A stretch of 64,000 nt of DNA from Naegleria gruberi (GCA_000004985.1 GG738889.1); one strand, 5' to 3'; shown: positions 1-58,891, counted from the stretch's first letter. A program made the numbers and translations. Notes: a model not told the origin generated them from the letters alone.

Positions 1-3000
1 TGTATCATCTTCTTGGGTAATTGTGGCACCTCCATTCAAAACAAGAATTGGGGTATCTGGTTCCTTATACACAAGTTGTGATTCTGTGATATTGGCAACT
101 TGGTTAGTGTCTGGATCGACTTGACCCTTAATTTGTTCTACTAACTTTTGAAGATCCTTTGGAATTTCAAACTTGGTATCAGCTTCAACAGGTTGAACAT
201 TGACTTTTGTTTCATTGAGATAAACTTGAACATCATTGACAAGAACCTTAACACCAGTCTTACCATCAGACAAGATTGAAACCTTATCCGATCCGCTCAT
301 GAATGAAATACCCTTCATACATGATGTCTTTGAATCTGCTGTACATTTCATCAATCTACCTTGTAATCCCAATTCATTAGACTTGTACAAGTAGAATTCA
401 CCAATTGAATTGAATGTATATTCTGCAGCATCAACAGTTCTAAGGTGAATATCACCAAAGGCCAAAACCTTATTGACCAAATCAAATATGTGAACAAGAC
501 TACAATCTGATCCTCCAAAACCTGGGAAACAAGCACAAGTATTTGGACCAACACAAGTACCTCTTCCTCCACACCAATTTCTATGGACACAATGGAATGA
601 TGAACAGGTTTCAGTGTACCAACCCCATCTACAGACACATTCATTTGGTCCAACACATTTACCTCTCTTAGCACCACCACAACTTGATCTATTAGCACAC
701 AAATCAGTATCAATGACAGCAACACAATTAGATCCAGGAGGAACATAGGTAGCCTCTTCAATATAGACAGTTGCTTCCTTCTTGACTGGAAGAGTGACAA
801 TATTATTCTTACAATCATAAGTAGTTAGACCATCTGTGAAATTGGATGGTGAGAGATTTCTAGTTGGTGAACCATCAGTAAATTCAATCTTAACTTTCAA
901 TGGTCCCCATTTGACAAATCCAATGGAAACACTCAAAGTTGTGGAACCTTGCCAATCGAGTCTTATCTTTTCAGGTGTACCAACAACACCAAGCCAATCA
1001 ATGGAATATCTATAGATACCATAATCCATGTAAAGTGCTCTGTACCACCATTCACCCCAATATTGCAATCTACCATTCAACTTTTCACTATATCCATTAG
1101 TACTATTCACTCTAGCTCTATCAATACCATTGGTAATGGCTGGAGTTGTAATTTCAAATCTCTTGAAATTCACAGATTCGTCACAAATGAAAGCATTCCA
1201 TTCCTTAACATAGGCACACAAAATTGGATCGACCATGATCATAGTACTTGGAATAATTCTAGCACCAGCTCTTCTGATTTTAGAAGGTACAGTAATATTT
1301 CTAGATAAAGTGCCGTCAGTATCAATAATAACTTCATGTCTATAAACATCAGACAATGATGATTCCTTAGAAGCCAAACCAGCAAGTAAATACATAACGT
1401 TAGCATTGTGGAAATACATTCTATTGGTAACATAATCACCTTGATTCATTGAAGCCCAATCATCATTTCTAAGATCAATGGATGATAGCTTTCTTTCACA
1501 ATTATCAACAAAATCAAAGAATTCCAAATCTTGAAGAAGTAAAGTATTACCATCACGATGATATAAAACACCGATAAATGGATCATTTCTACTGTATGAA
1601 GGAAGTGATCTATAATATGGTGAGGATGGATTCTTGTAATCAGTTCCACATCTATAACATTGACCATCATTACAATTATTTGGATTACCCTTATTTTGTG
1701 TAAAACCAATAAAGATGGCACCACTAACAACAATTGGACTCATAATGATATTAAGGACAGTATAACTAACTGGATTGTCTGCAAAGATACTTCCCTTCAA
1801 ATTGAGTTTTCCTTGAACGTGGGAGTATTGACCATTTTGTCTATTCTTCCAAATGTTCATATTCTCAAATACTGGTTCAGACCAAGGATTCTTATCAGTA
1901 CCACAATTAGTTGAATCATACATTTCCATCTTTGGATTTGTGCATGTGTAAAAGTTTGGATACAACATCATACCATGTTGATTATTACTGTGGGCAGTGT
2001 TGTTAACAAATTGTCCCCAGTACCATCTATTAGGTCTAATATATGGAGTTTGAGAAGCACCTGTAGCATAGGAATCCAAATGATACCAGAAACCAAAAGC
2101 ATCACTTCCAGCTGCACGATTTCCAATGAAAATATTGTTTGGATTGGTAATGTAGAAGGTGGCTGGATTATTGTCTTGATTGTCTGGAAGCATGACAGAT
2201 CTTGAATCTGGAATGACCTTTGAAAGTATACCAAGATTATTTTCGAAAATGTTATACTGTTCAGCACCATCTTCAAGGAAGAAAGTATGTCCATAAATAT
2301 TGAAAGCAACAACTCCTTCAACGTGTAAATAATTGGTTCCTTGCAATGCAACAGCTCTTTGATAGGTATCATAGACTGAAACCTTGTGGACATAGGAAGT
2401 ATTGGCATCACCAAACAATTGGAAGTAAATTGGATAACGACCTGGAATACCAGCTTGACCCATTCGTGTGAATTCAACATTATCAAGTCTGACATATTGA
2501 GCAGTTCTGAGGAAGGCAGTGTGACCACCAAACATTGAATCTTCACTTGTTGCCAAATCACCTCTAATCTTAATATTGTGCGATAACAAACCAACTTCAC
2601 CACGTTCATCAAATGTAACAACAGTTCCATTAGCCTTTTGATAGTATTCTGTATTGGCATAGTGACCATAGACGAGTGGTTTAACAAATCCAAAACATGT
2701 ACTATTGAAACGGACTGAAATTGTTCTTCTTTCAGCTTGATTGTGATAGTAATCAGTGGAAGCTAGAACAATTTCATCACCAACTTGCCATTCAGTTGGT
2801 TGTTTAAGATGAACGGAAGTATCACCAACTTGAGCTGATTTACCCAACAAAGTCCAAGAAACTTCATGTTTCTTACCATGCAAGCTCAAAGCACCTCCAC
2901 TGGTTACAATGATATTCTTAACACCAAATCCAATTAAAGTTCTATTGAGATTTCTTTCACCGTGAAGTGTAATTGTGGCATTGTGTTGATGAGGGCTGGT

Positions 3001-6000
3001 TTCATTACCTATTTGGAGAGAACCAGTAACAATCATCGATTTAAAGTGCATTTCCAAATCAAGCTCATCACTGAAAACTAAACAACCAAATACATGAACA
3101 ACGTCCAATTTTGGAGGAATGACATCCAAAATAACAGTATAGTTTTCTGGAACAACCAAAATTCTTTCGGGTTCAAGATAGAGAGAATCATCCTCTTCTT
3201 CTTCATCAATATAGTTGTTGGTAGAATTGGTTGTAGAGTTGGTGGAATTGTGTGAAATGAGAGTATTATTAACAAGAATGAATGTTGAATTATCGCCATA
3301 GCAATTTGTAACATTGAAAATGGTTCTATTAAGGGAACAAACTGTTGAGGTATTTACAGTAATTTGATTACAGACAACACTGGTAACATTCTCTGAAATG
3401 TAGGTAGTATTGCTGCAGTTTGAATTAGTTACTGAAATACACATGGCATCTCCATTGGAACAAGTTGAACAATTAGCACTATCACAAGTGAATGAATCAA
3501 TATGAGTGAAGATGACACAATCAGTATGGTTTGTATAGTAGAATCCATCGAATGTTGAATTCGTATAACATTCAGTGGTGTGTTCTGTAGCATAACAGTC
3601 ATAGATATCTTCACGAGTAATCTCAGTTGTGCAATTGGTAGTGCTATTGAATTGAGAATCATCAATATTTGAACTATTGCTATTGGATGTATTGTTAGAA
3701 TCAGTTGTTGAACTATTACCAATAGTTGAGTTACCGTCAACAGTAGAGTTATTATCAGTTGTTGAGTTTCCAGCAATTGTTGAGTTATCATTAGCTATTG
3801 TGGAGTTATCAGAAGTGGAATTGTTAAAGGTGGAGTTATCACTTGTAATAGTACCATTATTTACAATTGTTGAATTATCTGAAGTGGAATTATTTGAATC
3901 AGTTGTATTATTACTAGTTGTGGAATGATCAACTAGAGTAGAATTACTTCCATCAATATTGGTGGAATTGTTATCACCAATGTCAGTACTATTATCAACA
4001 TTTGTTCCATTATTATTATCAACTGTGCTATTATTGTCAGCTGTATTGTTGTTTTGAACAGTGGAGTTAGAATCGAGAGTTGAATTGTTTTCACCAATTG
4101 TACTGAAATCACCAACAGTAGCATTACTACCATCAGTGGTGGAATTATCAACTAGAGTTGAATTACCATCGATTGTGGAGTTATCACTTGTTGAACTATT
4201 AGATTCAGCTTGAGCAGTAATATTAACACAAGTTGTTGAAATACTCAAAACANNNNNNNNNNNNNNNNNNNNNNNNNNNNNNNNNNNNNNNNNNNNNNNN
4301 NNNNNNNNNNNNNNNNNNNNNNNNNNNNNNNNNNNNNNNNNNNNNNNNNNNNNNNNNNNNNNNNNNNNNNNNNNNNNNNNNNNNNNNNNNNNNNNNNNNN
4401 NNNNNNNNNNNNNNNNNNNNNNNNNNNNNNNNNNNNNNNNNNNNNNNNNNNNNNNNNNNNNNNNNNNNNNNNNNNNNNNNNNNNNNNNNNNNNNNNNNNN
4501 NNNNNNNNNNNNNNNNNNNNNNNNNNNNNNNNNNNNNNNNNNNNNNNNNNNNNNNNNNNNNNNNNNNNNNNNNNNNNNNNNNNNNNNNNNNNNNNNNNNN
4601 NNNNNNNNNNNNNNNNNNNNNNNNNNNNNNNNNNNNNNNNNNNNNNNNNNNNNNNNNNNNNNNNNNNNNNNNNNNNNNNNNNNNNNNNNNNNNNNNNNNN
4701 NNNNNNNNNNNNNNNNNNNTATAGTAGAATTGTTGTCTATTGTTGAATTGGAATTGGTAGTTGAATTATCAACATTAGTGGTATTATCATAAAGCGTTGA
4801 ATTGTCAACGTTAGTAGAGTTGTCCATTGTGGAATTGGAATCAGTCGTTGAATTATTAACATTAGTGGTATTATCACCTGTGGCTGTTGTTGAATTGTTC
4901 TCCACTGTTGAGTTATAGCTAACTGTACCATTTGAATCTGATTGTGTTGAATTGGAAAGTGAGTCGGTAGTGTTTTGGACAGTTCCATTATTAGTAGAAA
5001 TGGTCGAATTATCAGTAGAATTATTAGATATCGAGGTGTCATTCAAACCAGAGGTACTATTATCAACACTTGTTGAATTATCTATTTCTGTAGAATTGGA
5101 ATCAAAAGTGCTATTAGAATCAATTGTAGAATTATCAATATTGGTATTATTGGAATTATTACCATTATCAATATAAGTATTGTTATTATTAGTATTATCA
5201 TCAGTGTTAGTGGAATTACCAGTATGAGTAGAATTATCTCTGGAAGAATCATTAATAAAATGTGTATTATTATTCCCAATAATGGATGAATTATTCACAA
5301 GTGAGGAATTGCTCACAACTGTTTCATTCTTAACAATCACTGGATCCATGTATTCAGTCAAATTTCCATACAATTCAGACCACTTGATCACTTGTGATGG
5401 ACAATTATCACCAATACCATGTCCATATGGATTCAACTTGGTTGTTGTGAAAATAATTGCTTGATTACCAATACCATAACTATTATATCCAGTAAACTTG
5501 TTATATGGAAGAATTCTAAAACTGTAAGTCTTGTTTTCATCCAAATTATATCTTGTGAAATTATTGACATTATAAGATTTGTAAGTAATAGTAGTATATC
5601 CAACTGCATTCAATGTAGACATTTGAATTTGGATATAACAAATAGTACTAGCAGAAACATCTGGCATTTTCCACTTTAACAATACACTGTGATAGGTTGG
5701 AATTGCTCTAAAATTGTAAATGCTCGCAACTGATGATGCAGAAGGGAATGGAGCAACACTTGAATTATTGCCAGGATCAGACAAGTCCTTCAGGTTGTAT
5801 CTTCTTGTTGGAGGACCTCCATAGTACCACGAACAACAAGGATCACCCAATTCATCACCATTGGTTAAGCCATCTCCATCAGAGTCCTTCATGCAGAGAT
5901 CAGTGTTCCAGGCATAATTGTTATTCATGAAATCTCTTCCGAAAGATGTTAAATTACCATCCTTTTTGAAAATGTTCTGAAAGAGAGGTGAATTAGCAAA

Positions 6001-6195
6001 GGTGAGACCATTAGGAAGTTTGGCCACATCAAAATCCAAAGCAGTTACCATTCCCATACAGCAATAGAAGGAAATTACAATTCCTATCATGATCATTAAT
6101 ATCCTTGAGGATGAGGATGACCAAGACAGCTGATGTCTTGCTGTATTCTTCTTCATCCTGTTATCATCATCATTCCCGAACAAGGAACGCATCAT
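1..6195 (-). CDS. Giant secreted/surface glycoprotein, 3'-partial (continues past window start). Domain order: N-terminal signal-anchor, FN3-like domain, long N-S-T sequon repeat stalk, G8 domain plus right-handed beta-helix (CEMIP/TMEM2/PKHD1-like), Cys-rich EGF-like repeats, VWD-like domain.
   Basis: Minus strand. Start is ATG ATG at 6195..6190 (MMRSLFGNDDDNRMKK), followed by a hydrophobic anchor (ILMIMIGIVISFYCCMGMV). I translated by hand in one frame from 6195 to the gap at 4719, and from 4252 to position 1 with no stop. Recognisable pieces: G8-like motif LDVVHVFGCLVF...MIVTGSLQIGNE...ITLHGE; beta-helix segment GHTFFLEDGAEQYNIFENN; EGF-like CVGPNECVCRWGWYTETC and CVGPNTCACFPGFGGSDC; VWD-like FGDIHLRTVDAAEYTF...C. 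The ORF track does not list it because the ORF has no in-window stop. Frame continuity across the 467-nt N-gap is unknown. Confidence 0.7.
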   Translation of the reverse strand, partial: MMRSLFGNDDDNRMKKNTARHQLSWSSSSSRILMIMIGIVISFYCCMGMVTALDFDVAKLPNGLTFANSPLFQNIFKKDGNLTSFGRDFMNNNYAWNTDLCMKDSDGDGLTNGDELGDPCCSWYYGGPPTRRYNLKDLSDPGNNSSVAPFPSASSVASIYNFRAIPTYHSVLLKWKMPDVSASTICYIQIQMSTLNAVGYTTITYKSYNVNNFTRYNLDENKTYSFRILPYNKFTGYNSYGIGNQAIIFTTTKLNPYGHGIGDNCPSQVIKWSELYGNLTEYMDPVIVKNETVVSNSSLVNNSSIIGNNNTHFINDSSRDNSTHTGNSTNTDDNTNNNNTYIDNGNNSNNTNIDNSTIDSNSTFDSNSTEIDNSTSVDNSTSGLNDTSISNNSTDNSTISTNNGTVQNTTDSLSNSTQSDSNGTVSYNSTVENNSTTATGDNTTNVNNSTTDSNSTMDNSTNVDNSTLYDNTTNVDNSTTNSNSTIDNNSTIXXXXXXXXXXXXXXXXXXXXXXXXXXXXXXXXXXXXXXXXXXXXXXXXXXXXXXXXXXXXXXXXXXXXXXXXXXXXXXXXXXXXXXXXXXXXXXXXXXXXXXXXXXXXXXXXXXXXXXXXXXXXXXXXXXXXXXXXXXXXXXXXXXXXXXXXXXXXVLSISTTCVNITAQAESNSSTSDNSTIDGNSTLVDNSTTDGSNATVGDFSTIGENNSTLDSNSTVQNNNTADNNSTVDNNNGTNVDNSTDIGDNNSTNIDGSNSTLVDHSTTSNNTTDSNNSTSDNSTIVNNGTITSDNSTFNNSTSDNSTIANDNSTIAGNSTTDNNSTVDGNSTIGNSSTTDSNNTSNSNSSNIDDSQFNSTTNCTTEITREDIYDCYATEHTTECYTNSTFDGFYYTNHTDCVIFTHIDSFTCDSANCSTCSNGDAMCISVTNSNCSNTTYISENVTSVVCNQITVNTSTVCSLNRTIFNVTNCYGDNSTFILVNNTLISHNSTNSTTNSTNNYIDEEEEDDSLYLEPERILVVPENYTVILDVIPPKLDVVHVFGCLVFSDELDLEMHFKSMIVTGSLQIGNETSPHQHNATITLHGERNLNRTLIGFGVKNIIVTSGGALSLHGKKHEVSWTLLGKSAQVGDTSVHLKQPTEWQVGDEIVLASTDYYHNQAERRTISVRFNSTCFGFVKPLVYGHYANTEYYQKANGTVVTFDERGEVGLLSHNIKIRGDLATSEDSMFGGHTAFLRTAQYVRLDNVEFTRMGQAGIPGRYPIYFQLFGDANTSYVHKVSVYDTYQRAVALQGTNYLHVEGVVAFNIYGHTFFLEDGAEQYNIFENNLGILSKVIPDSRSVMLPDNQDNNPATFYITNPNNIFIGNRAAGSDAFGFWYHLDSYATGASQTPYIRPNRWYWGQFVNNTAHSNNQHGMMLYPNFYTCTNPKMEMYDSTNCGTDKNPWSEPVFENMNIWKNRQNGQYSHVQGKLNLKGSIFADNPVSYTVLNIIMSPIVVSGAIFIGFTQNKGNPNNCNDGQCYRCGTDYKNPSSPYYRSLPSYSRNDPFIGVLYHRDGNTLLLQDLEFFDFVDNCERKLSSIDLRNDDWASMNQGDYVTNRMYFHNANVMYLLAGLASKESSLSDVYRHEVIIDTDGTLSRNITVPSKIRRAGARIIPSTMIMVDPILCAYVKEWNAFICDESVNFKRFEITTPAITNGIDRARVNSTNGYSEKLNGRLQYWGEWWYRALYMDYGIYRYSIDWLGVVGTPEKIRLDWQGSTTLSVSIGFVKWGPLKVKIEFTDGSPTRNLSPSNFTDGLTTYDCKNNIVTLPVKKEATVYIEEATYVPPGSNCVAVIDTDLCANRSSCGGAKRGKCVGPNECVCRWGWYTETCSSFHCVHRNWCGGRGTCVGPNTCACFPGFGGSDCSLVHIFDLVNKVLAFGDIHLRTVDAAEYTFNSIGEFYLYKSNELGLQGRLMKCTADSKTSCMKGISFMSGSDKVSILSDGKTGVKVLVNDVQVYLNETKVNVQPVEADTKFEIPKDLQKLVEQIKGQVDPDTNQVANITESQLVYKEPDTPILVLNGGATITQEDDT
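3650..5290 (-). repeat. Coding tandem low-complexity repeat of 4-6-aa units centred on Asn-Ser-Thr (DNSTI/DNSTT/SNSTV...). It is a dense array of N-x-S/T glycosylation sequons forming a mucin-like stalk inside the giant CDS. It is interrupted by assembly gap 4253-4719.
   Basis: Translation gives more than 100 consecutive NST-containing units on both sides of the gap. The nucleotide level shows the repeated aattcaac[at]gt[tg]ga[tc]aa periodicity. Repeat-driven assembly collapse plausibly explains the gap. Confidence 0.8.
4253..4719. other. Assembly gap (467 N) inside the NST-repeat coding region.
   Basis: Run of N characters. Confidence 1.
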
Positions 6196-6980: not shown

Positions 6981-8351
6981 TTATAATACCTTTCTAATCC
7001 TATTATTTTTAGTATCTGCAATGTAAACAGCACCATTTGACTGAACTGCAATTCCACATGGATCATTGAGAGATGACAAGATGGCAGGCCCATTATCTCC
7101 ATCAAACCCAGCTCCGCTTCCACCAGCAATTGTTGAAATAGTTTTGGTTGTTGGATTAATCTTCTTAATTCTTGCATTAGACTTGTCAGCAACATAGACA
7201 TCACCATTTGGACCAATAGCAATACCAAAAGGTGAATCCAAGCATGCAAACTCTGTTGTGGATGGGAATCCTGGACGACATCCACCAGCAATTGTAGTCA
7301 TGGTATAATAACCATTTTGAACTACGACTTGTCTCACCGTATTGATCAAATTTTCAATAAAGTAAATCTTTCCTCCACTTGCTGCAACACTTATTGGGGA
7401 TGAAATCTTGATATATTGAGCAAGTCCTTCATAAATTAAATTGGGTTGTATATAAGGAGAGTATGTGTAATCTGTTCCAGCAACAGTGTAAAGTTTTGAA
7501 GAGGTAATTTTTCTAATCTTTGAATTATTAGTATCTGCAAAGTAAACAGTATTTGAACTAGATTGATCCACAGCAACACTTGTTGGATTATTCAACGATG
7601 AAGCAATGGCTGATAATCCGTCATACAAAGGACTACCAGCATCACCATCCCCTGCAATGGTAGAAATCTTTCCATTTGAGATTGTAATCTTTCTAATTCT
7701 ATGATTTTGGCTATCAGCAATATAGACATTTCCAATCGAATCGAGAGCAACACCTGTTGGTGAGCTTAATTTAGCAGTTGTAGCAATGATATTGTCTCCG
7801 TTATAACCTTCCTCTTCTGTTCCAGCAATGGTTGAAAGCTTTCCAGTAAGTGCTGTGAATTTTCTAATTCTATGATTTTGAGTGTCTGCAATGTAAATAT
7901 TTCCACTAGAATCCACTGCAATACTTGTTGGAAATAGAAGGGAGGTAGAAGTTGCTGCTCCTGAATCTCCACCATATCCAGGCATACCATTACCCACAAT
8001 GGTTTTAATTTGAGGTAACAAAATGTTGGTCAAGAATTGAGAAACGCTCACTGAACTAGATGGATTAGCCAACCTGTTTATCAAACCCCATGCGGAAGAG
8101 GAATTCGACTTTTTGTAAAGGAATACTACTCCATTATCAACCATGTCTGGTGCGCCAACTAAGAGATAGTTACCATTGGATGAGAAGGACAATAAACCGC
8201 CAAAAGATTGTTCTTCAGAATCAATGGCAAATTCCAATGCACAACTATCATTTTCCACACATGAGAAAATTTCAACTCTATATTCATATCCAAGCACCAA
8301 TTGGTTGGATAACATGGCTGCAGAAGTAACGTTCGAGACTGAGACATCCAT
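6981..8351 (-). CDS. Secreted beta-propeller protein with one FG-GAP-like repeat (FGGLLSFSSNGNYLLVGAPDMVDNGVVFLYKK) followed by about six NHL repeats (YIAD.QNHRIRKI).
   Basis: 456-aa ORF with an ATG start (AAG GAG ATG GAT GTC). It contains repeated ...GNIYIADTQNHRIRKF/GNVYIADSQNHRIRKI/GAVYIADTKNNRIRKV blocks, which are the NHL consensus. A possible extra 5' exon encodes a signal peptide MKRLHIMVTVIMMLLLLTL (ATG at 8622..8620). It would join through a 58-nt GTAGTT...CACAG intron into the open upstream frame (...HNGSTSSIILDTPVQ...). That exon is inference only. Confidence 0.7.
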   Translation of the reverse strand: MDVSVSNVTSAAMLSNQLVLGYEYRVEIFSCVENDSCALEFAIDSEEQSFGGLLSFSSNGNYLLVGAPDMVDNGVVFLYKKSNSSSAWGLINRLANPSSSVSVSQFLTNILLPQIKTIVGNGMPGYGGDSGAATSTSLLFPTSIAVDSSGNIYIADTQNHRIRKFTALTGKLSTIAGTEEEGYNGDNIIATTAKLSSPTGVALDSIGNVYIADSQNHRIRKITISNGKISTIAGDGDAGSPLYDGLSAIASSLNNPTSVAVDQSSSNTVYFADTNNSKIRKITSSKLYTVAGTDYTYSPYIQPNLIYEGLAQYIKISSPISVAASGGKIYFIENLINTVRQVVVQNGYYTMTTIAGGCRPGFPSTTEFACLDSPFGIAIGPNGDVYVADKSNARIKKINPTTKTISTIAGGSGAGFDGDNGPAILSSLNDPCGIAVQSNGAVYIADTKNNRIRKVL

Positions 8352-9836: not shown

Positions 9837-12800
9837 TTAATCGCTGTTATTCATGAATGGACCCAAAGCTTCATCATAGGCAAAGGAATAAATTTCTTGC
9901 ATGTCATCATTATCTAGGAATGGCTCAAAGAATGATTCATTTTGAAGAGATGGCTCTGCATTCATATTTGGAACAGGAGAAGCAAGTCCAAAACCTAGAT
10001 TATTTCCCAAATTCAAATTTAAACCGCTACCATTAATCATGTCTTGCCAGTTAATAGTAGGAGGATCTACCATTTGATTTTGAGTTCCCATATTGATAGG
10101 ATTATTACTCTTGTTATTATTCTTTGGATTGGCAATAACTGAGAAAAAGTCCTTGGTATTCTTAACATTTTGGAATTCGGAAAATTCTGAAAGATTGTAG
10201 TGACTAAATATATCATTTGAAAATCCACTCAAAGGATTAGTAGTGGTAGTGCTTCTATTGGATGTATTGGAAACGGTAGGAAGACTACTAGTTGTACTAC
10301 TAGGAGTGGTGCTATTGGTGCTATTAGAACTGCCAATACTGGTGGTTGGAAGAGAGCCAGATGAAAAGTTTTGAGTGAATTGTGGCAAGTCAGTTGGTTG
10401 TTTGCTTCCATCATTCAGAGAGTGAGAAGTGAATAAATTGAGAGCACTCATCAAGTGTTTTCTATTGATAATTTCCTCCATTTCTTGCATAAGTGTTTTG
10501 TGGAAGAGAGAAACTTTCTTATATCTCTTGGAGAGAATGTTCAAGGCTCTCAAATCTTTGGCCAAAATCTCATAATAGTCAACAGTACCAACTCGTGGTT
10601 CCTCACCATAGTTGACTGTTGGTACCATCATTACCTCTGGATTTTGACGTTCTCCAGCCTCAATAGACTTGACGATGTGAAGGTGAACTTTGGCAGCTGC
10701 TGCAACGTGAGCAACAATTGGTGGTGGCACAAAGAGGAATAACTCATTCTCTGTACCAAATGTAATTTTGAGAGCAGACTCTTCAATCAATTCCTTTCCA
10801 CGATTGACAGCACTCAAAATTCCTAATCTAATGCCATGGAATACAATAGTTGATCCCATATCGAAAATCTTCAAGTTTCTTTCACTACCAGTCTTTGTGA
10901 GATGCATTCTTACGATGTGTAAAAGTGTCTCTACAACCTTGATCATTGTGGAATAGTTATTTGGTGTCAAATCTTGCTCGAGTAATGTTCTCCATTCGGT
11001 AGGTATTTGAATACCAAGTGTCTTTTCGAATACATTTGGCCAATCCTTCAAGAGAGAAAGCACACCACTATCATTTGATGAACAGACTTTACAAAAACTT
11101 CTAATCTTTTTGAGATTTTTCTGATAGATTGTCAAATTTTGTTGTTCTTCTTCACTGAGCTCATCAAGGTAAAAGTTAACAGACTGTAAATAGTATTTGG
11201 CAGTCTTTAGTCTTCCACATCCTGACTCGTAGATGCACATGAATGCATAACAACAACTCACGTAAAAATTTGAATGTTCATCAAAGAATTTGGATAGAGC
11301 TTCTCTAGCTTTTTTCATTGTTTCTTCAGCTAAATCTGAAAGACCAGTTCTTTGCTCGCAAATGGCCTTAATAGCTAAAAACATGGCATATACTTCCTTC
11401 TTGTTTGGCATGATATCATTTCCTTCAGTAATAATTTCTTCATCGTCATCCTTTGAGTTATTTGACTTAGAAGAGAGATATCCTTCAAAGTCTTTTCTTT
11501 CAATTACTGGCATACCATTACCAAAAATGTTAAAGTACAAATCTAGTACCTTTCTCTTGTCAAGATGTTTTTCTGGTGTTTTGGCAATATTTCCATAGGG
11601 TGTTTCAGATGATAAAATGTTTGCCAACAACTTGGTTGTGCTTGAATGAAGAGGTTTCACTCCAGCATTAGTAGTATTGAAGATACACATGTTCATTTCG
11701 GAAATTCTTCTAACATCAACATCTGCCATTTGAGGTGCTGTATTTGTTGAAATTCTGTCCAATTCTGGAGGGTTCATTGAAACTCCTTCCCATGATGGTA
11801 GAGATGAAGCAATGTCCCTATTGCTTTGGTCACCTTCAGTAGATGTTTTTGGTTTGGCTGTTCTTCCCTTTTTTCTTGGGATTTTATATTCACAATTTAC
11901 TCCTCTCGAAACACATTTTGAACAGGCTGGTAATTTCCTATCCTATAATTTCAAAATTCAATATTATAATCCAAATATGATAAGAGATATCAAAAGTTAG
12001 TACTCCAAATAATTGTTTAAATACTAATACGTACACATCTTTTGTGTAGACGACGGCATTGTACACAAGCTATTGGATGGAATAAACCTCCACTCTCATC
12101 TCCTTCCATTTGCATCTCCTCATCTTCATCAGATTCTGGAGCAACTGGTTTTTTCTTCTTCTTTTTCTTTGATTCTTCTACGTGTTGTCCATTACTTCCA
12201 CTACTACTCGAAAGGGATGATGAGGATGTTGGTGATGTCATTGGTAGGTTGTTGTTGCTGCTACTTGTAATATGATTATTAATATTATTCAGCAAGGTTG
12301 AAATCTTGTCCGAAGATGCTGATTTTGATATTTGTTGATTGGCATTTGCTGATGTTGTGTTGTTTGTTCCTGCTGATGAATTACCCAAGAGTGAAGAAGA
12401 ACTTGTTGATGGTGCTAATAAACCTCCCTTGTTCTGGTTTGGCAATCCAAGTTGTTCCAAATAGTAAGAGAGTGAATCTGCCAGAGGTGTTGATGCTGGT
12501 GGAAGGGGTGAGACAAATGCTGATGGATTGGTGCTATTGCTATTTGAGGAGGAACTTCCTGGAGTATTTACATTGGCTGACATTGCATTCAGGAGGTTGT
12601 TATTGCTATTGGTATTGTTGTTATTGCCAGAGAAGAGTCGTTGATAGTAGTGTGCCATTTCGTCGGAAGCCATCGTAGATGTGGATCCATCCAATAAATT
12701 AAATAGAGAAGGTTGATTGGTGGCACCACCTTGTTGCTTTTCGAATTGGTGTAGGAAGTGAAGAGCATTGGAGGTGTTGGAGGATTGGAAGGCAGATTGT

Positions 12801-22906: not shown

Positions 22907-24520
22907 TTAACACACTCTACTATCTAAATACCTATCAGGAATATAACAATCCATGTAGCAACTACTCATTCTAATTTGTCTTAATTCTTTTAAGAAATTC
23001 TCACCAAATAAAATTCTGTAAACTTGATTTTCTTCTCTGTATGGGTAAGGAATGATGAACCCATTCTGCTTGACAGCTTCTATAATCATCTCTGCATTGA
23101 ATTTCCATCTGTTGGAACAGAACATGAGTGCCAATCCATTCTGTCTAATTGCAGATAATGCCAATTCCCTATCTGAAGGTTTAATAAAAGGTTTCAGATA
23201 GCATAGAGAGAAGCCGTTCAGTTTTACCAGTGTATGAATAAACTCTCTATCTGAAAATACATTATCAGGTGCCTGACCAATCACTGATGGATTAATCTTG
23301 ATAGATTCACACAGAATATCTACATCACTCTTCAAAGTTTCCGATAATTGAGAATAAAGGTTTAAAATTTGATCTGGATGCTCCTGCTTCAAAGCCTGAA
23401 TAACAAACTCCTTATTTTCTTGAAGTTTCTGTGGGAACTCTTGGAATACCTTATTATTTTGTTTCAGTACTTTTAAAGCAAATTCAATGTCTCCTTTCAT
23501 TTGACCTGTTATAAACTTTAAGTTTTGAGTATCTCTATAAAGAACCTTTGAATCATTATGCAATCTCATATTTGGTGATTTCTCTTGGTTAGCAATTGAT
23601 TCGGAATATTGTTGAATTTCTGGATTTAATTCCAATAATTCTGTAGAAGCATACTCAATGGCACATGAATTTTGCTTGATAGCTTGTTTTACAATTTGTA
23701 TATTTGATTTCATTCGTTCAGATGCATAACCAAGAGCAAGCCCATTGCTGTTAATGGCTAGTTTCACTAATTCTTCATCATCATTAAAGTGGGCCACATA
23801 TCTCAAGCTTAATCCATTTTGACAGATGGCAAGTTTGACAATATCAATATCTCCTTTGAACTCTTCATTCAAATATTCCAAAACCATTCCATTTACACTA
23901 ACCACTTTTTTAATAAATTGGTAATCCTTTTTCAAGACTTCTGATGCAAATCTAAATGCAAATGTCATTTGTCTTGTGGCTTCTAAAACAATTTCTTCAT
24001 CTGATTGCATTGAAGGAGCATGGGAAAGAGCAATGCCTATCTGCTTTACAGCTTCCAAAACAATTCTTCTATCATTTCTCAATTCCAGAGGAATTTCACT
24101 AATCATTAATCCATTTTGTTTGACTGCTGACAGGGCAACATCTCTGTCATTTCTCAATTCTTCAGAGGCAAACGTCAGAGCAAATCCGCCCTGCTGACAA
24201 GCTTTCATTACAATTTCCTTATCATTCTTCCAAGAAGGAACTAAACTCAAATATTCTCTATAAACTGAAGTGTCCTTATCAACAATTGACAGGACAGTTT
24301 CTCTATTCTCAATAAATTCAATTGGAATATACAAGTGACTTCTATTGTAATGACTACTCTTCCAATTTCTTATGTGTTTATGATAGATTTCTCTATTGGT
24401 GAACCACTTTACAAAACCCTTGCTTTGCAATTGAAGTTTTGTAGTGAGAAGTGTTTGCAACGAATTGCATTCATTGAAATCAATTAACTCAATGATAACC
24501 TGTTGTTCTGCATGATGCAT
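22907..24520 (-). CDS. DUF4116-type repeat protein, 537 aa, built of tandem ~30-aa repeats of the form ...EIVL.AVKQNG.AL.YAS.ELRND...
   Basis: ATG at 24520. At least 8 repeats are visible, for example DRDVALSAVKQNGLMISEIPLELRND, RRIVLEAVKQIGIALSHAP, DIVKLAICQNGLSLRYVAH, IQIVKQAIKQNSCAIEYAS, RELALSAIRQNGLALMFCS and EMIIEAVKQNGFII. Confidence 0.6.
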   Translation of the reverse strand: MHHAEQQVIIELIDFNECNSLQTLLTTKLQLQSKGFVKWFTNREIYHKHIRNWKSSHYNRSHLYIPIEFIENRETVLSIVDKDTSVYREYLSLVPSWKNDKEIVMKACQQGGFALTFASEELRNDRDVALSAVKQNGLMISEIPLELRNDRRIVLEAVKQIGIALSHAPSMQSDEEIVLEATRQMTFAFRFASEVLKKDYQFIKKVVSVNGMVLEYLNEEFKGDIDIVKLAICQNGLSLRYVAHFNDDEELVKLAINSNGLALGYASERMKSNIQIVKQAIKQNSCAIEYASTELLELNPEIQQYSESIANQEKSPNMRLHNDSKVLYRDTQNLKFITGQMKGDIEFALKVLKQNNKVFQEFPQKLQENKEFVIQALKQEHPDQILNLYSQLSETLKSDVDILCESIKINPSVIGQAPDNVFSDREFIHTLVKLNGFSLCYLKPFIKPSDRELALSAIRQNGLALMFCSNRWKFNAEMIIEAVKQNGFIIPYPYREENQVYRILFGENFLKELRQIRMSSCYMDCYIPDRYLDSRVC

Positions 24521-26132: not shown

Positions 26133-27680
26133 TTAAAGGGCTATACTGCCATTTTCATCCAATGTTTCGAAATATCCGCTAGAGTTTGCTGGTCTTGTAT
26201 ACATATCACATTTAGTTTGTTTGATTACTTTCATGGTTTCTCTGAAAAAGTTCTTGGCTCTTGTCTTGACAATCTTGTGTACTATAAAGTTTGGAAGCGA
26301 CCCTCTAAGATCTGTACCAATTAATTCAATATATTTACAATGCTCTTTTCCATCTACCATGACAGGCATGAAAATCCAAGCACCAATATCCAGGGCCTTA
26401 ATTGCATCCTTCTCCGACAATTTGTAATTTGGTGGTTCACAAGATTTCTTTGCGACAATGTACAACTTGTCAGTAGTGTCATAAACCATAGATTGAGCCA
26501 AAACATAGTACCTATTCTTAACAGGCCACACCAATTTGTAGACCTCATGGGTGAGAACAGTTGCCAATCTTGTCTTGCCAGAAAGTTTGTTCAAAGAAAG
26601 GAGGGAATCTGATGAGGCACTATGATTACTATGTGTACTATGTGGTGAGGCTGGTGGTGAATGGTTGAGTGATGACAGGGACTCACTACTCTTGTATTTT
26701 TTTGGAGGTGATGAAAGTAAATCTCCTCCAGACTTATTCAGATACCCCACAATTTTGATACTATCCAAATTCTTATCAGATGCCAATCTAATTGTAGTAT
26801 TTGTCATAATATTCATCATTTGTTCCACAGTATAAGGGAAAATGACTTGAGATTTGGCAAAGTAAATACCCTTCTTACTTTCTTCCTCTCCCAGAATGTA
26901 CTTGTTCGATGATAAAAATGCAAAACAAGTATCCTTACTATAGATGCAATCCCAGAACTTTTCTTCCAATACATGTTGTTTGATCATTTTGATTTGGTCA
27001 ACTGTAATTTCACAACTCTTCATATCCATCAATGATTCCACAAAACAGCTGTGGGAGAGATTTCTTACAGTACCAATTTGGTTCAAGAATTGTTTGCTCT
27101 TCTTGCAAACAAATTGTTTGAATGTGTCAGATTCCAAAAACATTGGAAAGACGTGTTCTTTCATATTGACTAGAATATAGCTCTCTGCTTTCTTAAGCGC
27201 TTCTTCACATTCTTGAAGATCAGAACTGTCAATATTCACCTGTTGAAGAGTTGAGTTACTGGCATTTGAAGAATTTGTTGGTGTTTTTAGAGTAATCTTG
27301 TCGTTCAGATCCATAAAGCTCTGTTCCATAACTTCCCTTGATCTTTGAGGTAAATTCAACTCGTGAACAGAATTACCACTGAAAAAAGTAATGAAAATTT
27401 GTTGCAACGCATTCCACTTATTGGCAGCAGATCGCTTTCTATAATACTCGTTAACTTGATCTAGAAACATTATACTCTCCTCGCAATGAATAATTTTCAT
27501 GAACTGCAGCAAGGCTTGTTTAGTTTCTGGTTCGTCCAGAAATGCTTCATATGAAAAACAATAATCTCTCAACGAGAGTAATAGTTTCTGTTGTTCAGTT
27601 GTGTATGTAGAGAGAGGAATGTTCGTGGTAGTAGCCGAGAAGGATTTATCAACAGCCAAGGTTGATGTTGTTGCACTCAT
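26133..27680 (-). CDS. RGS-domain protein with a C-terminal START-like domain, about 516 aa.
   Basis: The track ORF starts at a TTG at 27794. The first in-frame ATG is 27680..27678 (MSATTSTLAV). RGS-like block: LSLRDYCFSYEAFLDEPETKQALLQFMKIIHCEESIMFLDQVNEYY...WNALQQIFITFF. The C-terminal region (...YVLAQSMVYDTTDKLYIVAKKSCEPPNYK...GSLPNFIVHKIVKTRAKNFFRETMKVI) resembles a START lipid-binding fold. Confidence 0.6.
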   Translation of the reverse strand: MSATTSTLAVDKSFSATTTNIPLSTYTTEQQKLLLSLRDYCFSYEAFLDEPETKQALLQFMKIIHCEESIMFLDQVNEYYRKRSAANKWNALQQIFITFFSGNSVHELNLPQRSREVMEQSFMDLNDKITLKTPTNSSNASNSTLQQVNIDSSDLQECEEALKKAESYILVNMKEHVFPMFLESDTFKQFVCKKSKQFLNQIGTVRNLSHSCFVESLMDMKSCEITVDQIKMIKQHVLEEKFWDCIYSKDTCFAFLSSNKYILGEEESKKGIYFAKSQVIFPYTVEQMMNIMTNTTIRLASDKNLDSIKIVGYLNKSGGDLLSSPPKKYKSSESLSSLNHSPPASPHSTHSNHSASSDSLLSLNKLSGKTRLATVLTHEVYKLVWPVKNRYYVLAQSMVYDTTDKLYIVAKKSCEPPNYKLSEKDAIKALDIGAWIFMPVMVDGKEHCKYIELIGTDLRGSLPNFIVHKIVKTRAKNFFRETMKVIKQTKCDMYTRPANSSGYFETLDENGSIAL

Positions 27681-29563
27681 GATTAGTTGTTGGTTGAGTA
27701 CTGACGTTTTTTTGATATGATGAAATTGACTTGAAATAGTCCTTACTTTGAGAATCTGCCAGGCGCAAAATCCAACTCTATAGACGTTAGACAAAGTATT
27801 ATTTGGGATTCGTATGGAAAATGTTCTTTCAACACTTTTCTCTTTTCGTTTCCTAATCCTTTAGAATAACAAGCTGTTGGCAAGGAAAGTTCTTTTTGAG
27901 TAGGTGGTCAAACCCGTACGTTGAAAACCTTTCAATTTTTGATTTTTCTCAATCTGTCAAAGAGATACTAGTCTCCTTTGGTTTTCTTATCTTGCAACAA
28001 CTGTTGAGAAAAATTAATGTCGTGTTGATGAAAAATCACCGCCCAGAAATGTTGTCGTTTTTTTGTTGTGAAGATTCCTCTAACACACGCTGTCAGCACC
28101 TATCGGCAACTATCACGAACAAATTAAAATATTATAATTCAAACCTGAGCAGTGCCGGTGTTTAACACCATCCTTGCCAAAGTCCTTAAAGCCTTTTACT
28201 AAAAAGCCTGCATACAAAAAATTTGCTTTCCTTACTCGAACACTCGTTGGGCATCATCAGTGATTTCGCTCCTTTTTTTTTTAAAGTTGGACATGACGAA
28301 GTTGGTGAGCGGGAAAGTGTTTCTGTTTGAGAAAAAGATGCGGTGCATCTATTTTACAAATGTCATCAACACTTGGACATATTGGTATGATGAAGTCAGT
28401 TATTCTTATTAGTGAGTGTTTTTCACACTTTCAACATATTGAGATGATTTCTTGTATTCTGAGAAATGAAACATTTACATGAAATTGTTGGGAGTGGAGA
28501 AAGGTCAGAAGTCAAAATAGGTTTTGAATCATTTGAATCATTCCCTGAGAGAGTCACATTCCTTACCAGCCTTATTTCTTCTTCGACAATAAAATTCCTT
28601 GATCATATCCTTATCAAACTCTGATTCGTAAATATTCACATCTGATAATAATGTCAATTTCTTATCCAAATTGATTTTCCAAGAAATAGACAAGCTGAAA
28701 CTGTATGAAAAAGCAGCAGAAACTACTCCATAAAACTGAAAACCCTGTTTTGGGCAAGAAATAATTAATTCTGATGGAATAATTAAAGATAAAATACAAT
28801 TATCAAAAATTGAGAAATGTAAGGCATTATTGGTTCGTAACGTGTGATATTTGAGATTTCTACTCACACGATTATTGCATGATCCATGAAATAATATTAA
28901 ATCTCCATGCTTCCCAGCACTCGGGTCAAGGTAATAAATTACTCTCAAATAAAACATGATCACATCCAAATTCTAGGAATATTCTGATCACCTCATTGGT
29001 AACAGTAGTCATTGATTGAAATAATAAGCTTGTTCACTAGAAGCCAGTGTCTAATCTCCGAAGAAGAAGAGAAGACTGAGTAGTGATTGCCCTCCATCAT
29101 TGTCCGTTACATTAATACAACTTGAAAAAAAATAGAAATGATTTGTGCTCCTGCATCATCTCTCTCAATGCTGAACTTATCTTCACATTAATGGAATTTA
29201 CTAATATTAGTTAGTTTCCGAATACTTATTAAAAAGTCTAGAAGTGTGTTCTTCCTATTTCATGCATGAAACCTCATAATCCTTCAATTCTATCACTACC
29301 CGATATCAAGAAAGCTTCTGATGAGCAGTGATGGAACATATTCATCATCTGATCAAGTTTTGGCAATTCAACATTTCAAAACAGTAGAGAGAGGTTCAAT
29401 GAAATTACGTTTCCATCCATTCTCCTACCATGTCCAGTAATATCATTGGCCATTACTCGGAAGACATCAAACATTGTAATTTTAAAATGTGAGAGTGTCC
29501 AATGAAACTCTCAGATTGTACAATGAACCACAAAAACAACAAGAAAAAAGGTTTCATCATCAT

Positions 29564-32500
29564 ATGAGTACGAATCCATACCTTCTGCCCACTTCTTCTA
29601 CAAGTATGTTTTCATTAGGAGAGGTAGCATCAAGTAGTCAGAATGTACTTGCAGAACAATCATCATCACACTATTCGATGGGAGCAACTGGGAATGAGTA
29701 TAATCCCTCAAAAGCTGGTACCATGTCTCATACTGGCTCTGAAAGTATTAAAAGTGCTGATACACTATCAACAACAAGTGAGGGAGGAATTAGAGGTCAA
29801 ACCAAATTGCTAATTACCACAACTTTGGTCAGTTTGCAAGATAGCTCACCAAAGAAAGGATGGCGATGCTATGTTTCCTATCTATTGGTTTTTATATACA
29901 TGTTTTGGTGTCAGGTGTTTGTACCTACGTTGGGAAATTATGGTTGGGGAGAGTATGGAACCTATGTATTGATTCATGTTCTCAATTTTCCAAATACCTT
30001 TCTGGTTCATCTCATTCCATTCTATGGATATTTGGCCATCACTATTGCAACTATATTATTTGTATTAACCATGGCAGTTTTGTATATTGTGGGAGTAAGG
30101 TTGGCAACGAAACCAAACAAGCATTTTAACAAGTTCAAGGTTTTGGTTTACTATCTCAGTTTCTTTGTCAAGACTTTCTCTCTCCCTATTGTATATATTT
30201 TGGTTGGTTTATTGGATTGTAATTCTATTGCCTATGATGTAGATGGTGATCCAATCCCTTCTTTGAGAAGATATAGCTCACAATCTTGTACAGACGATTT
30301 GAATATTATCATGATGATTATATCAGTAATTTCCCTTTTGATACTGTTACCTGTTTATTTCTTTTCAGAATCTATAACGGCAAATTCCAATCCACACAAT
30401 AGAACTCCACTGATGGTTGAAAGTTCTTTTCCAACTTCAATTATTGGAGTAATTTCATTGATACAACTAATTATTGGCCAACTGATACCAAGCAATTACA
30501 TGTACATATCTGCTGCCTTACAATTATTACTCAGTGTGATAGCAACCATTATTGCTGGTTATTCACTTCCTTGTTTCAGAATAATTGATAATTCTCTTTA
30601 TTTTGGTATGAATTTGGCTAAAGTAGGAGCAAGTATTGGATCCGTGGTGGCGTCCTCTCTTAATACTGCAAATATATTGAATACATCAGATCCAACACTG
30701 GGCTGGTCTCTCATGACCTTGGGATTGATGATTCTATTCTTTGTTATTGGAGTGGCTATTTTGGAAGTTTTCCAAAGAATTCAACTGAAAAGAGCTAGAA
30801 GTTTTATACTGAACTGGGTTCAACAAGATGAAACAGCTATTAACTCTGATCCTATTTCTCCACTCATTCTCATAGAAAAGAATGCCATGAATATATATGG
30901 CGATGCAGAAGATGCCAAGCTGTTGGGTCTATTGAGACACATGTTCAAGTGTTCCATTCTAGAGGCAAGGGATGCCAAAGGCACTTCATACACTAATAGT
31001 GACTTGTCTTCAGCATTTGTGAAGGGAGCAGCTAGTCACAACTCATTCAATGACCTCAAGTTATTGATTTATTCGTCAATATTATTGGAGACTAAATGGA
31101 ATGAAAGCAATAATACTGTCTTTTCTCTCAACCTACTCAAACGTGCAATGAAACAACATCCAAATGGATTAGAGCAAATTACTATACGGGAGAGAATTAA
31201 GCAAGTTGAGAACTTTTCTCAAACCAACTTTAAGAATTTAACCAATTTTGAATTGAGCTCTCAACTCGACTTGCTAGAAAAGAATCAAAACATTCTTCTA
31301 ACTTTGCACAGAAACTTTTGGAAGGAGTTGGCATCTGAAAAGATCAATTATGATTCTGTTGAAAAAATCAATCGTGCCATTCATTCTCTCACTATTGATT
31401 GTAGGACAACACTTCAAAATTTAATGTACAACCACAAAAATAACAAGACAATTTACAGATTATATGCCAATTTCATTGAAAGTTTTGAGTTTGACAGCGA
31501 CTTGGCCCAACAATACTATAACGAAGCCAATTCTATTGAAGAGGAGGAAATGAAAAGAAAGAGAAGAATGTCAACCTTTAGTAATAATGGAAAGAGAGGT
31601 GGTAATCGTGTTGTTCCTGTCATGAATGAATACAAATTTGGAAATGCAGAGGCAGTTGAAGATCAAGATTTAGATGAGATGGAAAGTGCCTTTGATAATC
31701 CAAAGGTAAAAAAGGAGCAAGTTTTCAAAACAGCCATCTCAAATCAAAGATCCAATAGATTCGTATTCACATCAACTCTATTATATGGCTTGCTATGTTT
31801 CAGTTTTATCACTGCATCGTTAGTACTTAGTGTTTATTACTCTAAAACTTCCAAGAACAATATTCCTTACTTGCAACAGGTTTGCGCAGTTAGTGTAGCT
31901 CCATTCTCAGTATTTAGAAATGTCAGGGCTGGTCAGAACTGGATGAACTTTTACATGCTTTTTGAAAATGTTTGGCCAGCTATTAATCCTGAATCAAATA
32001 CCAAAACAAGATCAAAATCAAGCTATGTCACAAGTCACAAACAAAGAATGTTAGACGATTTGGCTTATTATGATACTCTCGTTTCTACAGCTCAAAGTAA
32101 GATATTCGATAGTGACTCATATATCGACTATTCAGAAAATGTTTATCCATTTGCATACCCAAATGAAGACAAACAGTTTAACTATAATGGAGCTTTAACT
32201 ATTAGAAATATTTCAGTTCAAGAAATTACCAATAATATGATCAAGTACACTAAGAAATTCTACGCAGACGTACCAGACACATATTTATTGGCCTCTGAAG
32301 CTATTAATATCACATATGCCAAGAAGAAACTCAATCTTGACTTGGCAGCAAATTCTACCTATTTTAATCCATTGGCAAACTATAATTTTATGGTTTTGTA
32401 TAGTAATATTGAGAGAGCTAGTAATGCCTATGATGCATTTTGTGGAAAATATCTCGATAGATCAACAAGTACAATTAATGATACCATCAATCTTTTGATC

Positions 32501-36570: not shown

Positions 36571-36708
36571 TTTTTTTTGTAATTTAATTTGTTGTTGGCT
36601 TCCCTACTGAAATGAGATATATTGAATGCCACTATCAGGTAAGGTAGGTAATTCAGAAAGATGCTTTGCAATGAAATATTGCAGTAATATTTTCATAATT
36701 TACAAGAT

Positions 36709-36780
36709 TCCCGTGTAGTCCAATGGCTAGGATACCTGGCTTTCACCCAGGAGGTCCGGGTTCAATTCCCGGCATGGGAG
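36709..36780 (+). tRNA. tRNA-Glu (anticodon TTC), 72 nt.
   Basis: TCCCGTGTAGTCCAATGGCTAGGATACCTGGCTTTCACCCAGGAGGTCCGGGTTCAATTCCCGGCATGGGAG folds as a cloverleaf. Acceptor TCCCGTG/CATGGGA plus discriminator G. Anticodon stem CCTGG/CCAGG with loop CTTTCAC. T-arm CCGGG-TTCAATT-CCCGG. A T-rich tract (TTTTAACTTTTTC) follows as a Pol III terminator. Confidence 0.9.
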
Positions 36781-37031
36781 AATCATTTTAACTTTTTCAT
36801 TGACCTGGGATAGAGCACTAACAATATTTTTCAAACCAACTTTAAACCAAGTTGTGGAAAGATGATCAGCAATGTTTCCCTAATTTCCTTTCTTCCAGTC
36901 CTATTGAATAAGCTCATCAAATTGATTTCTCAAAGGTGAAAAATGATTCGTCTCATTCCGGACTTGGTCCTTGCTTCGAATAATAATATCTGATGGGGGG
37001 CGATTGGTAAACAAATTCTATTCTTTAAAAA

Positions 37032-38392: not shown

Positions 38393-38855
38393 TTTATTAT
38401 TACATTGACACTAACATGATATTGGTCATTCATTGTTGTACAACAATAAGAAGAATAAATTATTAGATGACTTTGGCCAATGTCATTGATGTGATAACAT
38501 ATGTCGCTGTGCAACTACCTGACATTCTAATAATGTTTCGTATTGCATAAATTTATACTTCCAATAGTTCATCACACATTTTAAACTTGTGGAAGTCTTG
38601 AAATACAGACAAAAGATTTAATCAGAATCAGAGAGAAAGCATCATATCGATACTCAAGTATTAACGAGTATAACATTCCATTTGAAAAATTCTGAACATT
38701 CATTTCACTTCCTTCACTCACTTATGAAAATGCAAAAACAAAAACCTGACAAAATTAGTCACTTTTATGTAAAAGGAAAGAAGTATTCCTAAATAGATAT
38801 CCTGTTATCCAAACTCACAAGAAAAAGTTACTTGTCAACAAACAAATTAGAAAAA

Positions 38856-58841: not shown

Positions 58842-58891
58842 NNNNNNNNNNNNNNNNNNNNNNNNNNNNNNNNNNNNNNNNNNNNNNNNNN
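58842..58891. other. Assembly gap (50 N).
   Basis: Run of N characters. Confidence 1.

Follow-up and report, generated by a model that had tools for sequence, protein, structure and literature searches.

Human TMEM2 (CEMIP2, 8C6I) and CEMIP/HYBID are the closest described relatives of a giant protein encoded on the minus strand at positions 1 to 6195 of a 64,000-nucleotide stretch of the Naegleria gruberi genome (GCA_000004985.1 GG738889.1), a stretch called the window throughout. TMEM2, like the protein described here, is a single-pass cell-surface protein. In the TMEM2 structure, the G8 domain forms part of a right-handed beta-helix (PMC10206443). No active site has been assigned for CEMIP or TMEM2 (PMC10206443), and our literature search found no paper assigning catalytic residues to either of them. 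The only substitutions known to reduce their activity lie in a lectin-like domain, GG-1, and comprise R187 of CEMIP and R265, D273 and D286 of TMEM2 (PMC10206443, PMC12423501). The activity of TMEM2 is itself disputed. Two groups could not reproduce it (PMC10206443, PMC10276149), and in one study the purified ectodomain degraded hyaluronan (PMC10474455).

The window protein is a divergent variant of a known family, of ordinary to moderate interest, and does not represent a new class of system. We give a probability of roughly 0.55 to the reading that it is a surface glycoprotein of some 2,340-2,370 residues with a C-terminal anchor, in which an array of N-glycosylation sequons forms a glycan brush and the helix has changed or lost its ancestral activity and serves in binding or adhesion. 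The architecture assumed here is well supported. That the glycan sites are occupied, that the linker is extended, that the protein lies at the surface and that its activity has been lost or altered are functional conclusions which we infer from the sequence.

The source of the DNA is N. gruberi, and the translated region is 100% identical to P0001, deposited as "predicted protein [Naegleria gruberi]" with 1,829 residues. The parts of the gene on which the argument depends are the following.

4720-6195, minus strand: visible N-terminal part of the coding sequence, 492 codons from the ATG to the gap edge, matching P0001 exactly up to ...KWSE.
4253-4719, no strand: assembly gap within the repeat, 467 N.
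3841-5373, minus strand: stretch spliced out as an "intron" in the 1,829-residue model (donor GAATT/GTATGG, acceptor ACAAG/T), judged here to be coding.
4720-5373, minus strand: N-side block of the sequon repeat, 218 residues with 39 sequons.
3652-4251, minus strand: C-side block of the sequon repeat, 200 residues with 36 sequons, of which the first ~17 residues past the gap (VLSISTTCVNITAQAES) are not repeat-like.

The open reading frame (ORF) has its first ATG at 6195, and an upstream stop closes the frame. Beyond the gap it runs from 4251 to base 1 of the window through 1,417 codons with no stop, while the other two minus-strand frames over 1-4252 contain 34 and 226 stops. In total, 1,909 codons are visible without a stop before the frame leaves the window at base 1. 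Positions 4252-4719 amount to 468 nucleotides, or 156 codons, so that the frame is continuous as written; this continuity carries no weight, because the size of a scaffold gap is an estimate and one gap in three fits the frame by chance. With the gap included, the in-window length is 2,065 codons. P0001 adds 307 residues past base 1, comprising the rest of a VWD-like module, a C8-like region, a third EGF repeat, a transmembrane segment and the tail, and the full-length protein as written reaches about 2,372 residues from the first Met, or 2,339 from the JGI start. The expectation of an ORF above 2,000 residues, raised by an earlier examination of this DNA (the sequence-only reading), is thereby borne out, as is the placing of the gap inside a coding repeat of uncertain unit number, for repeat blocks flank the gap in an open frame. 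A pseudogene was rejected for the visible sequence, on the strength of the absence of stops, and this rejection does not extend to the gap portion.

In the deposited model, KWSE is joined straight to F-DNSTFNNS, and a supposed intron of about 1.5 kb, which takes in the gap, is removed. If that model were correct, the NST "repeat" would be non-coding low-complexity DNA. GT...AG boundaries do exist, and the phase match yields a Phe at the junction. However, the coding frame is open across the supposed intron, with no stops in 218+137 codons (355), whereas each of the other five frames has 3-54 stops; from base composition, open blocks such as these two would be expected with probabilities of 7e-8 and 2e-5. 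The codon usage of the stretch resembles that of the remainder of the gene, and its translation shows a periodicity of six residues around a fixed NST core. Orthologues are colinear past the supposed donor, where LYGNLTEY..VIVKNETVV aligns with them, and in the orthologue P0003 the gene occupies a single unbroken ORF of 5.4 kb on its contig. The deposited model itself retains the last 63 residues of the repeat as exon. Because 3841-5373 holds the only open frame, with matching codon usage, colinear orthologues and an intronless counterpart in P0003, it is read as coding. The gene almost certainly consists of a single exon, the "intron" being an artefact of modelling around the gap, and we regard the deposited structure as scarcely credible. 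The public protein for the locus would then be some 510 residues short, the repeat plus gap having been spliced out, and a correction of the gene model is warranted. Set against all other members, the deposited model of the second N. gruberi member, FM171 (P0004), is without the N-terminal ~110 residues and a 23-residue stretch of the VWD-like module after GDIHLRTVD. These shortfalls suggest further gene-model errors in the family.

The repeat contains 75 visible N-x-S/T sequons in 418 residues, or 18 per 100 residues, compared with 2.3 per 100 outside it. Asn makes up 23-25% of it, Ser 19-21% and Thr 18-19%, and composition-preserving shuffles give about 19 sequons per block with a maximum of 31, so that the observed counts are about twice the expectation from composition (z of about 6, unmatched in 1,000 shuffles). 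Sequon spacing peaks at six residues, and residue autocorrelation is highest at lags 6 and 12, where it reaches 0.28-0.34, compared with about 0.1 at other lags. The degenerate unit can be written (D/N/S)-N-S-T-x-x, or more fully (D/N/S)-N-S-T-(I/T/V/L)-(D/x). The coding sequon repeat of hundreds of residues described by the sequence-only reading is therefore real in the visible sequence. At the DNA level, Tandem Repeats Finder reports periods of 18 and 36 nucleotides with only 61-76% match. The 37 NST triplets are encoded by 19 different 9-mers, in which both TCN and AGY serine codons are used, and the longest exact word common to both sides of the gap has 15 nucleotides. These features point to an array that is old and degenerate as DNA, in which the NST motif has been kept in the protein despite synonymous drift. 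Because the motif is kept at the protein level, selection on the sequon appears to be responsible rather than recent slippage.

The genome is AT-rich (about 35% GC), the repeat units are degenerate, and the window protein is the fastest-evolving member of its family and has lost conserved residues of the helix. These observations could be taken to mean that the repeat is unselected Asn/Ser/Thr-rich low-complexity growth with little or no glycosylation, perhaps in a decaying paralogue. Such an origin is unlikely in our view, since sequons occur at twice the shuffled expectation, N-S-T is fixed while its flanks and codons vary, the visible codons hold no stop, and 92% of the family-invariant columns are retained. 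A literature search on Naegleria N-glycans returned nothing beyond a general pathway paper.

The same degeneracy bears on the gap. It had been stated that the repeat almost certainly caused it, and this proved too strong: with units 61-76% alike and cross-gap exact matches of at most 15 nucleotides, the divergence of the visible units is too great for the repeat alone to account for an assembly failure. The repeat as cause of the gap is plausible and unproven. Three further gaps are present at 45726-46281, 58842-58891 and 60089-62870, which makes four in 64 kb, and the flanks of these three are of ordinary complexity and non-repetitive; gaps on this scaffold are thus not specific to repeats. 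A search with a repeat-containing query for a gap-spanning copy in an index of 5.8 billion proteins retrieved only an N. fowleri fragment, the candidates being swamped by low-complexity words.

Downstream of the array, the protein continues into a core that is shared with TMEM2.

2845-3171, minus strand: G8 domain, forming the N-terminal turns of the beta-helix (Pfam PF10162, E 3.6e-26, 91.9 bits against a cut-off of 22.9).
1969-2532, minus strand: CEMIP-type right-handed beta-helix (Pfam PF24606, CEMIP_beta-hel, E 6.7e-63).
2338-2439, minus strand: degenerate His-cluster block, reading RYPIYFQ...VSVYD...AVALQG; the counterpart in relatives is RYPvHfH...SIHd...vTvHG.
2266-2292, minus strand: retained GHTFFLEDG motif, identified by alignment.
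2143-2163, minus strand: ATFYITN in place of the (A/S)TFWITN of relatives, with Tyr for a near-invariant Trp.
748-1968, minus strand: post-helix beta-rich region of about 400 residues, confidently modelled and matching no Pfam family.

A phmmer comparison with the PDB chain 8c6i of TMEM2 gave an E-value of 3.8e-44. A model of the 812-residue core, built from a 40-sequence alignment, reached a pLDDT of 88.5 and a pTM of 0.88, and its top Foldseek match was again 8c6i, the TMEM2 ectodomain (E 1.7e-39, TMq 0.75). The G8 and right-handed beta-helix assignment made earlier is thus confirmed by profile and by fold. Because the TMq of 0.75 spans the whole 812-residue query, most of the post-helix region is probably matched by 8c6i as well, and it presumably corresponds to "domain X" of TMEM2. 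Apart from the adhesin PfbA, the other Foldseek matches listed are capsule depolymerases, phage tailspikes, GH110, GH87 and GH28 enzymes, and an alginate epimerase. No paper linking Naegleria and the G8 domain was found in our literature search.

The helix of the window protein differs from those of its relatives at a small set of conserved positions. When the core was aligned with 118 homologues, 105 columns were conserved in at least 116 of them, and the window protein keeps 97 of the 105 (92%). Among the eight changed columns are four His, one Trp and one Thr, the last lying on the same strand as the final His and two residues before it. RYPvHfH has become RYPIYFQ, SIH has become SVY and TvHG has become ALQG, so that the five His and Trp positions read Y, Q, Y, Q and Y. 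The probability that at least four of eight changes would fall on the nine invariant His is 0.0016. The four His positions are occupied by His in 116-118 of the 118 close homologues. Among 118 diverse representatives at 50% identity, each of the five positions is conserved in 105-117, and a combined loss of three of them occurs in just one other representative. Human TMEM2 holds all five residues, the alignment placing the His at H550, H552, H575 and H585 and the Trp in STFWIAHPNN. In the model, the four positions lie on three consecutive strands at alternate residues between hydrophobics, and from this strand alternation alone the side chains probably face outward.

A related pattern was observed in fibrocystin-like giants with two G8/beta-helix units (homologues P0126-P0213, alignment A6), the first unit of which keeps the His of RYPxHxH/SIH/TxHG while the second-unit consensus is without them. 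Loss of the His cluster may be a recurrent route to a non-canonical helix.

The sequence-only reading had associated the G8/beta-helix module with glycan cleavage. The fold is that of a polysaccharide-binding or -cleaving helix, and an inference of cleavage by analogy with animals is weak outside them and weaker for the window paralogue. In the TMEM2 alignment, the 8c6i chain jumps from residue 164 to 340 while the query advances by about 10, so that an insert of about 175 residues, consisting of a small sandwich and GG-1, is absent. Pfam found no GG/PANDER match in the window protein at E<=0.1, nor any match to the second lectin-like domain. The protein could nevertheless be an active surface enzyme that degrades glycans or remodels matrix, its helix cleaving bacterial exopolysaccharide (EPS), cyst-wall or prey glycans and its repeat acting as spacer or shield. 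The TMEM2 fold, the carbohydrate-active beta-helix enzymes that make up its structural neighbours except PfbA, the large majority of conserved columns kept, GHxFFLEDG included, and the hyaluronan degradation by purified TMEM2 ectodomain in one study (PMC10474455) would all agree with such an enzyme. Against it stand the four near-invariant His and one Trp replaced in the window paralogue alone, the absence of GG-1 as the sole carrier of activity-reducing mutations (PMC12423501), and the failure of two groups to reproduce TMEM2 activity (PMC10206443, PMC10276149). Moreover, a substrate is known for none of the non-animal members. On balance, an active enzyme, the main alternative to the preferred reading, seems doubtful, if still worth serious consideration, and the glycan-cleaving link is weakened. 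We know of no hyaluronan metabolism in Naegleria. Because those His and Trp residues are substituted, a role in binding or in the glycocalyx is judged likelier than glycan cleavage.

The modules on either side of the array and the core determine how the protein would be displayed.

6040-6102, minus strand: N-terminal hydrophobic segment ILMIMIGIVISFYCCMGMVTA, a signal peptide or signal anchor (Kyte-Doolittle 19-residue peak 2.48).
5770-5970, minus strand: Temptin_C domain with the DSDGDGLTNGDELGDPCC motif (Pfam PF24784, E 9.3e-21, 74.6 bits against a cut-off of 27).
5440-5721, minus strand: FN3-like beta-sandwich, from profile, model and Foldseek evidence.
3211-3651, minus strand: Cys- and sequon-rich linker of 147 residues, loosely common to P0002-P0004 and not to Willaertia P0005.
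3187-3210, minus strand: acidic IDEEEEDD stretch after the Cys-rich linker.
499-726, minus strand: two EGF-like Cys repeats, from sub-threshold profiles and Cys spacing.
1-468, minus strand: N-terminal ~155 residues of a VWD-like module, starting VLAFGDIHLRT, with the remainder past base 1.

The N-terminal hydrophobic segment covers 21 residues (32-52), and an equivalent long stretch occurs in all orthologues. It had been called an anchor and may instead be a signal peptide. The strongest hydropathy peak, 2.76, lies beyond the window at C-terminal residues ~2289-2323; after it come RRYK and a tail, some 50 residues long, with a conserved RMVSIVPT. The certain membrane anchor is this C-terminal transmembrane helix. 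The description as a giant surface protein agrees with such an anchor. Proceeding outward from the membrane, the order is EGF, VWD/C8-like, two EGF, post-helix sandwich, beta-helix/G8, Cys-rich knot, sequon array, FN3 and Temptin_C. Because the anchor is C-terminal, the array is best seen as the distal tether of an N-terminal Temptin_C and FN3 head and not as a membrane-proximal stalk, as it had been termed.

Temptin_C, significant in Pfam, had been missed by the sequence-only reading, whose module order (FN3-like, repeat, G8/beta-helix, EGF-like, VWD-like) was otherwise correct. The DSDGDGLTNGDELGDPCC motif is invariant in nine aligned sequences and resembles TSP3, so that it is presumed from its sequence to bind Ca2+. 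A literature search on temptin returned nothing mechanistic, and a search with the head found four short temptin-like proteins while missing known orthologues; its one use was to add a little depth to the alignment. The FN3-like fold is supported by three weak and concordant lines. Pfam fn3 scores below its cut-off in orthologues (17.7-21.5 bits against 25) and has no match in the window protein; a profile of the orthologues against the PDB matches FN3 chains only; and a low-confidence head model (pLDDT 48), used for strand count and fold class only, has seven strands, with nearly all listed Foldseek matches in the PDB being of FN3 type (TMt up to 0.77). For the Cys-rich 159 residues and the post-helix 318 residues, no Pfam match was obtained at E<=10.

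Hidden Markov models (HMMs) recover G8 and the beta-helix above cut-off, and the remaining two module types that had been proposed fare less evenly. The in-window EGF-like repeats stay below cut-off for EGF_PEAR1L (26.5 bits against 37.5) and EGF_TEN (35.7 against 65); they match the EGF repeats of WIF-1 with E 0.008 and show the classic Cys spacing. The third EGF, outside the window, clears the EGF_Teneurin cut-off (24.8 bits against 24.3). The VWD model found no match in the window protein at E<=0.05; among the orthologues, that of Willaertia alone passes, in the corresponding place (PF00094, 34.5 bits against 22.9). A profile of four orthologues (A1) matches the VWD of MUC2 with E 1.2e-6, and also VWF D3 and RGMB, and RGM_C scores 24.6 bits against 27 in P0001, in the portion that lies outside the window. 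In place of the autocatalytic GDPH motif, which occurs in MUC2, MUC4 and RGM members, the window protein has GDIH and every orthologue GD(I/V)H, which leaves no Asp-Pro bond. The VWD-like module is therefore supported through its orthologues, and the sequence weakly supports the EGF-like repeats.

The complete architecture was found in only five full-length proteins of the index: P0001 and FM171 (P0004) from N. gruberi, FDP41_006486 (P0002) from N. fowleri, ABK040_005245 (P0005) from Willaertia magna, and P0003 from an unnamed sample. A sixth member, the truncated P0125, came from an exhaustive search. The family appears to be small and has so far been seen only in heterolobosean amoebae or close relatives. 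Its members seem to be built from a signal sequence, Temptin_C, an FN3-like domain, a linker, the G8/TMEM2-type beta-helix, the post-helix sandwich, two EGF repeats, a VWD/C8-like region, a further EGF repeat, a transmembrane segment and a short tail. The heterolobosean relatives are colinear with the window protein from Temptin_C to the cytoplasmic tail. Unlike it, they keep all four His and the Trp, and have a linker of 17-165 residues and no NST array. The window protein is the most diverged, with 48-55% identity to its four full-length relatives against 51-69% among them. Its linker from FN3 to G8 measures about 740 residues compared with 157, 165 and 139 in the Naegleria-type proteins and 17 in Willaertia, and the array was found only in the window paralogue, being absent from orthologues and paralogues alike. 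As the linkers of the relatives are far shorter, the array appears to be a paralogue-specific expansion of a linker already rich in sequons and Cys.

Outside this family, the next-best matches are limited to the helix. One group consists of G8+helix proteins of about 800-1,100 residues, most of them of metagenomic or bacterial origin; the other consists of fibrocystin-type TIG-rich giants of 2,000-4,700 residues. The fibrocystin/PKHD1-like giants, with their TIG repeats and two G8/beta-helix units, are among the best non-heterolobosean helix matches of the exhaustive search; unlike the window protein, they have no Temptin_C, VWD or sequon array. TMEM2 resembles the window protein in the sequence and fold of the helix and differs in topology, its ectodomain (106-1383) being C-terminal to the anchor. 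Compared with TMEM2, the window protein adds Temptin_C, FN3, the sequon array, EGF and VWD, is without the insert of about 175 residues, and has the His cluster and Trp replaced.

MUC4-like transmembrane mucins offer a functional analogy only. In these, a glycosylated repeat likewise lies N-terminal to a VWD/C8-like/EGF/transmembrane cassette, and Pfam C8-3_MUC4 and RGM_C give weak matches in the orthologues. The window protein differs in having N-linked sequons instead of Pro/Thr/Ser O-glycan repeats, GDIH instead of GDPH, and a beta-helix between the repeat and the VWD. Unlike in MUC4, no NIDO or AMOP domain was found by Pfam. A bolder proposal, which we consider unlikely, is that an amoeboflagellate independently built an N-linked transmembrane "mucin", with about 100 sequons in about 570 residues placed on a VWD/EGF/transmembrane base, and that the loss of four His turned its helix into a non-catalytic binder. 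If this were true, the His cluster would be the long-sought functional site, metal or catalytic, of the CEMIP/TMEM2/fibrocystin helix.

The preferred glycan-brush reading would work as follows. The oligosaccharyltransferase in the endoplasmic reticulum would glycosylate many Asn of the array, and the glycosylated linker would become a stiff, extended and protease-resistant brush comparable to a mucin domain. This brush would project the putatively Ca2+-binding Temptin/FN3 head far past the body of the beta-helix and add bulk to the glycocalyx. The helix, with its replaced His/Trp cluster, would most likely have changed or lost its ancestral activity and would serve in binding or adhesion and not in polysaccharide cleavage. 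Several points weigh against this reading. The Ser and Thr of the array could instead, or also, bear O-glycans. The acidic GHxFFLEDG motif is intact in the window protein, and since no catalytic site has been established for CEMIP/TMEM2 (PMC10206443), loss of the His cluster need not mean loss of activity. Through an N-terminal segment that stays uncleaved, the protein might be held to the membrane at both ends, and the ~156 codons hidden by the gap could contain a stop or a frameshift.

Other genes were identified in the window. The adjoining upstream gene (6981-8351, minus strand) encodes a 456-residue NHL-repeat, teneurin-NHL-like beta-propeller (NHL E 3.7e-37, TEN_NHL E 4.8e-26). The proximity of an extracellular-type NHL module to a protein with teneurin-like EGF repeats is probably a coincidence. 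An uninterrupted ORF of 1,808 residues at 29489-34915 (plus strand) was considered as a second copy of the family, having the length of P0003, and was rejected, as it encodes an unrelated PAS adenylate/guanylate cyclase that also has TPR repeats of the TmcB type. On the minus strand, an eight-repeat DUF4116 protein lies at 22907-24520 and an RGS+START protein at 26133-27794; on the plus strand, a cytochrome P450 lies at 48361-50013 and a protein with a weak RGS match at 53364-55565. A tRNA-Glu (TTC) is located between protein-coding ORFs at 36708-36781 (plus strand). No Pfam family was found for ORFs of 646 residues at 9837-11777 (minus strand) and 688 residues at 38832-40898 (plus strand).

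The window paralogue has selectively lost a patch of four His and one Trp that human, protist and prokaryotic-type members have in common, which provides concrete residues for the mutation of TMEM2 and makes the window paralogue a useful natural experiment on the conserved His cluster. In the pathogenic N. fowleri, the family member retains the His and is free of the repeat. If the proposed reading is correct, the N. gruberi protein would rank among the densest arrays of N-glycosylation sequons described in protist surface proteins, and it is a candidate major component of the glycocalyx or of the adhesion machinery of Naegleria.

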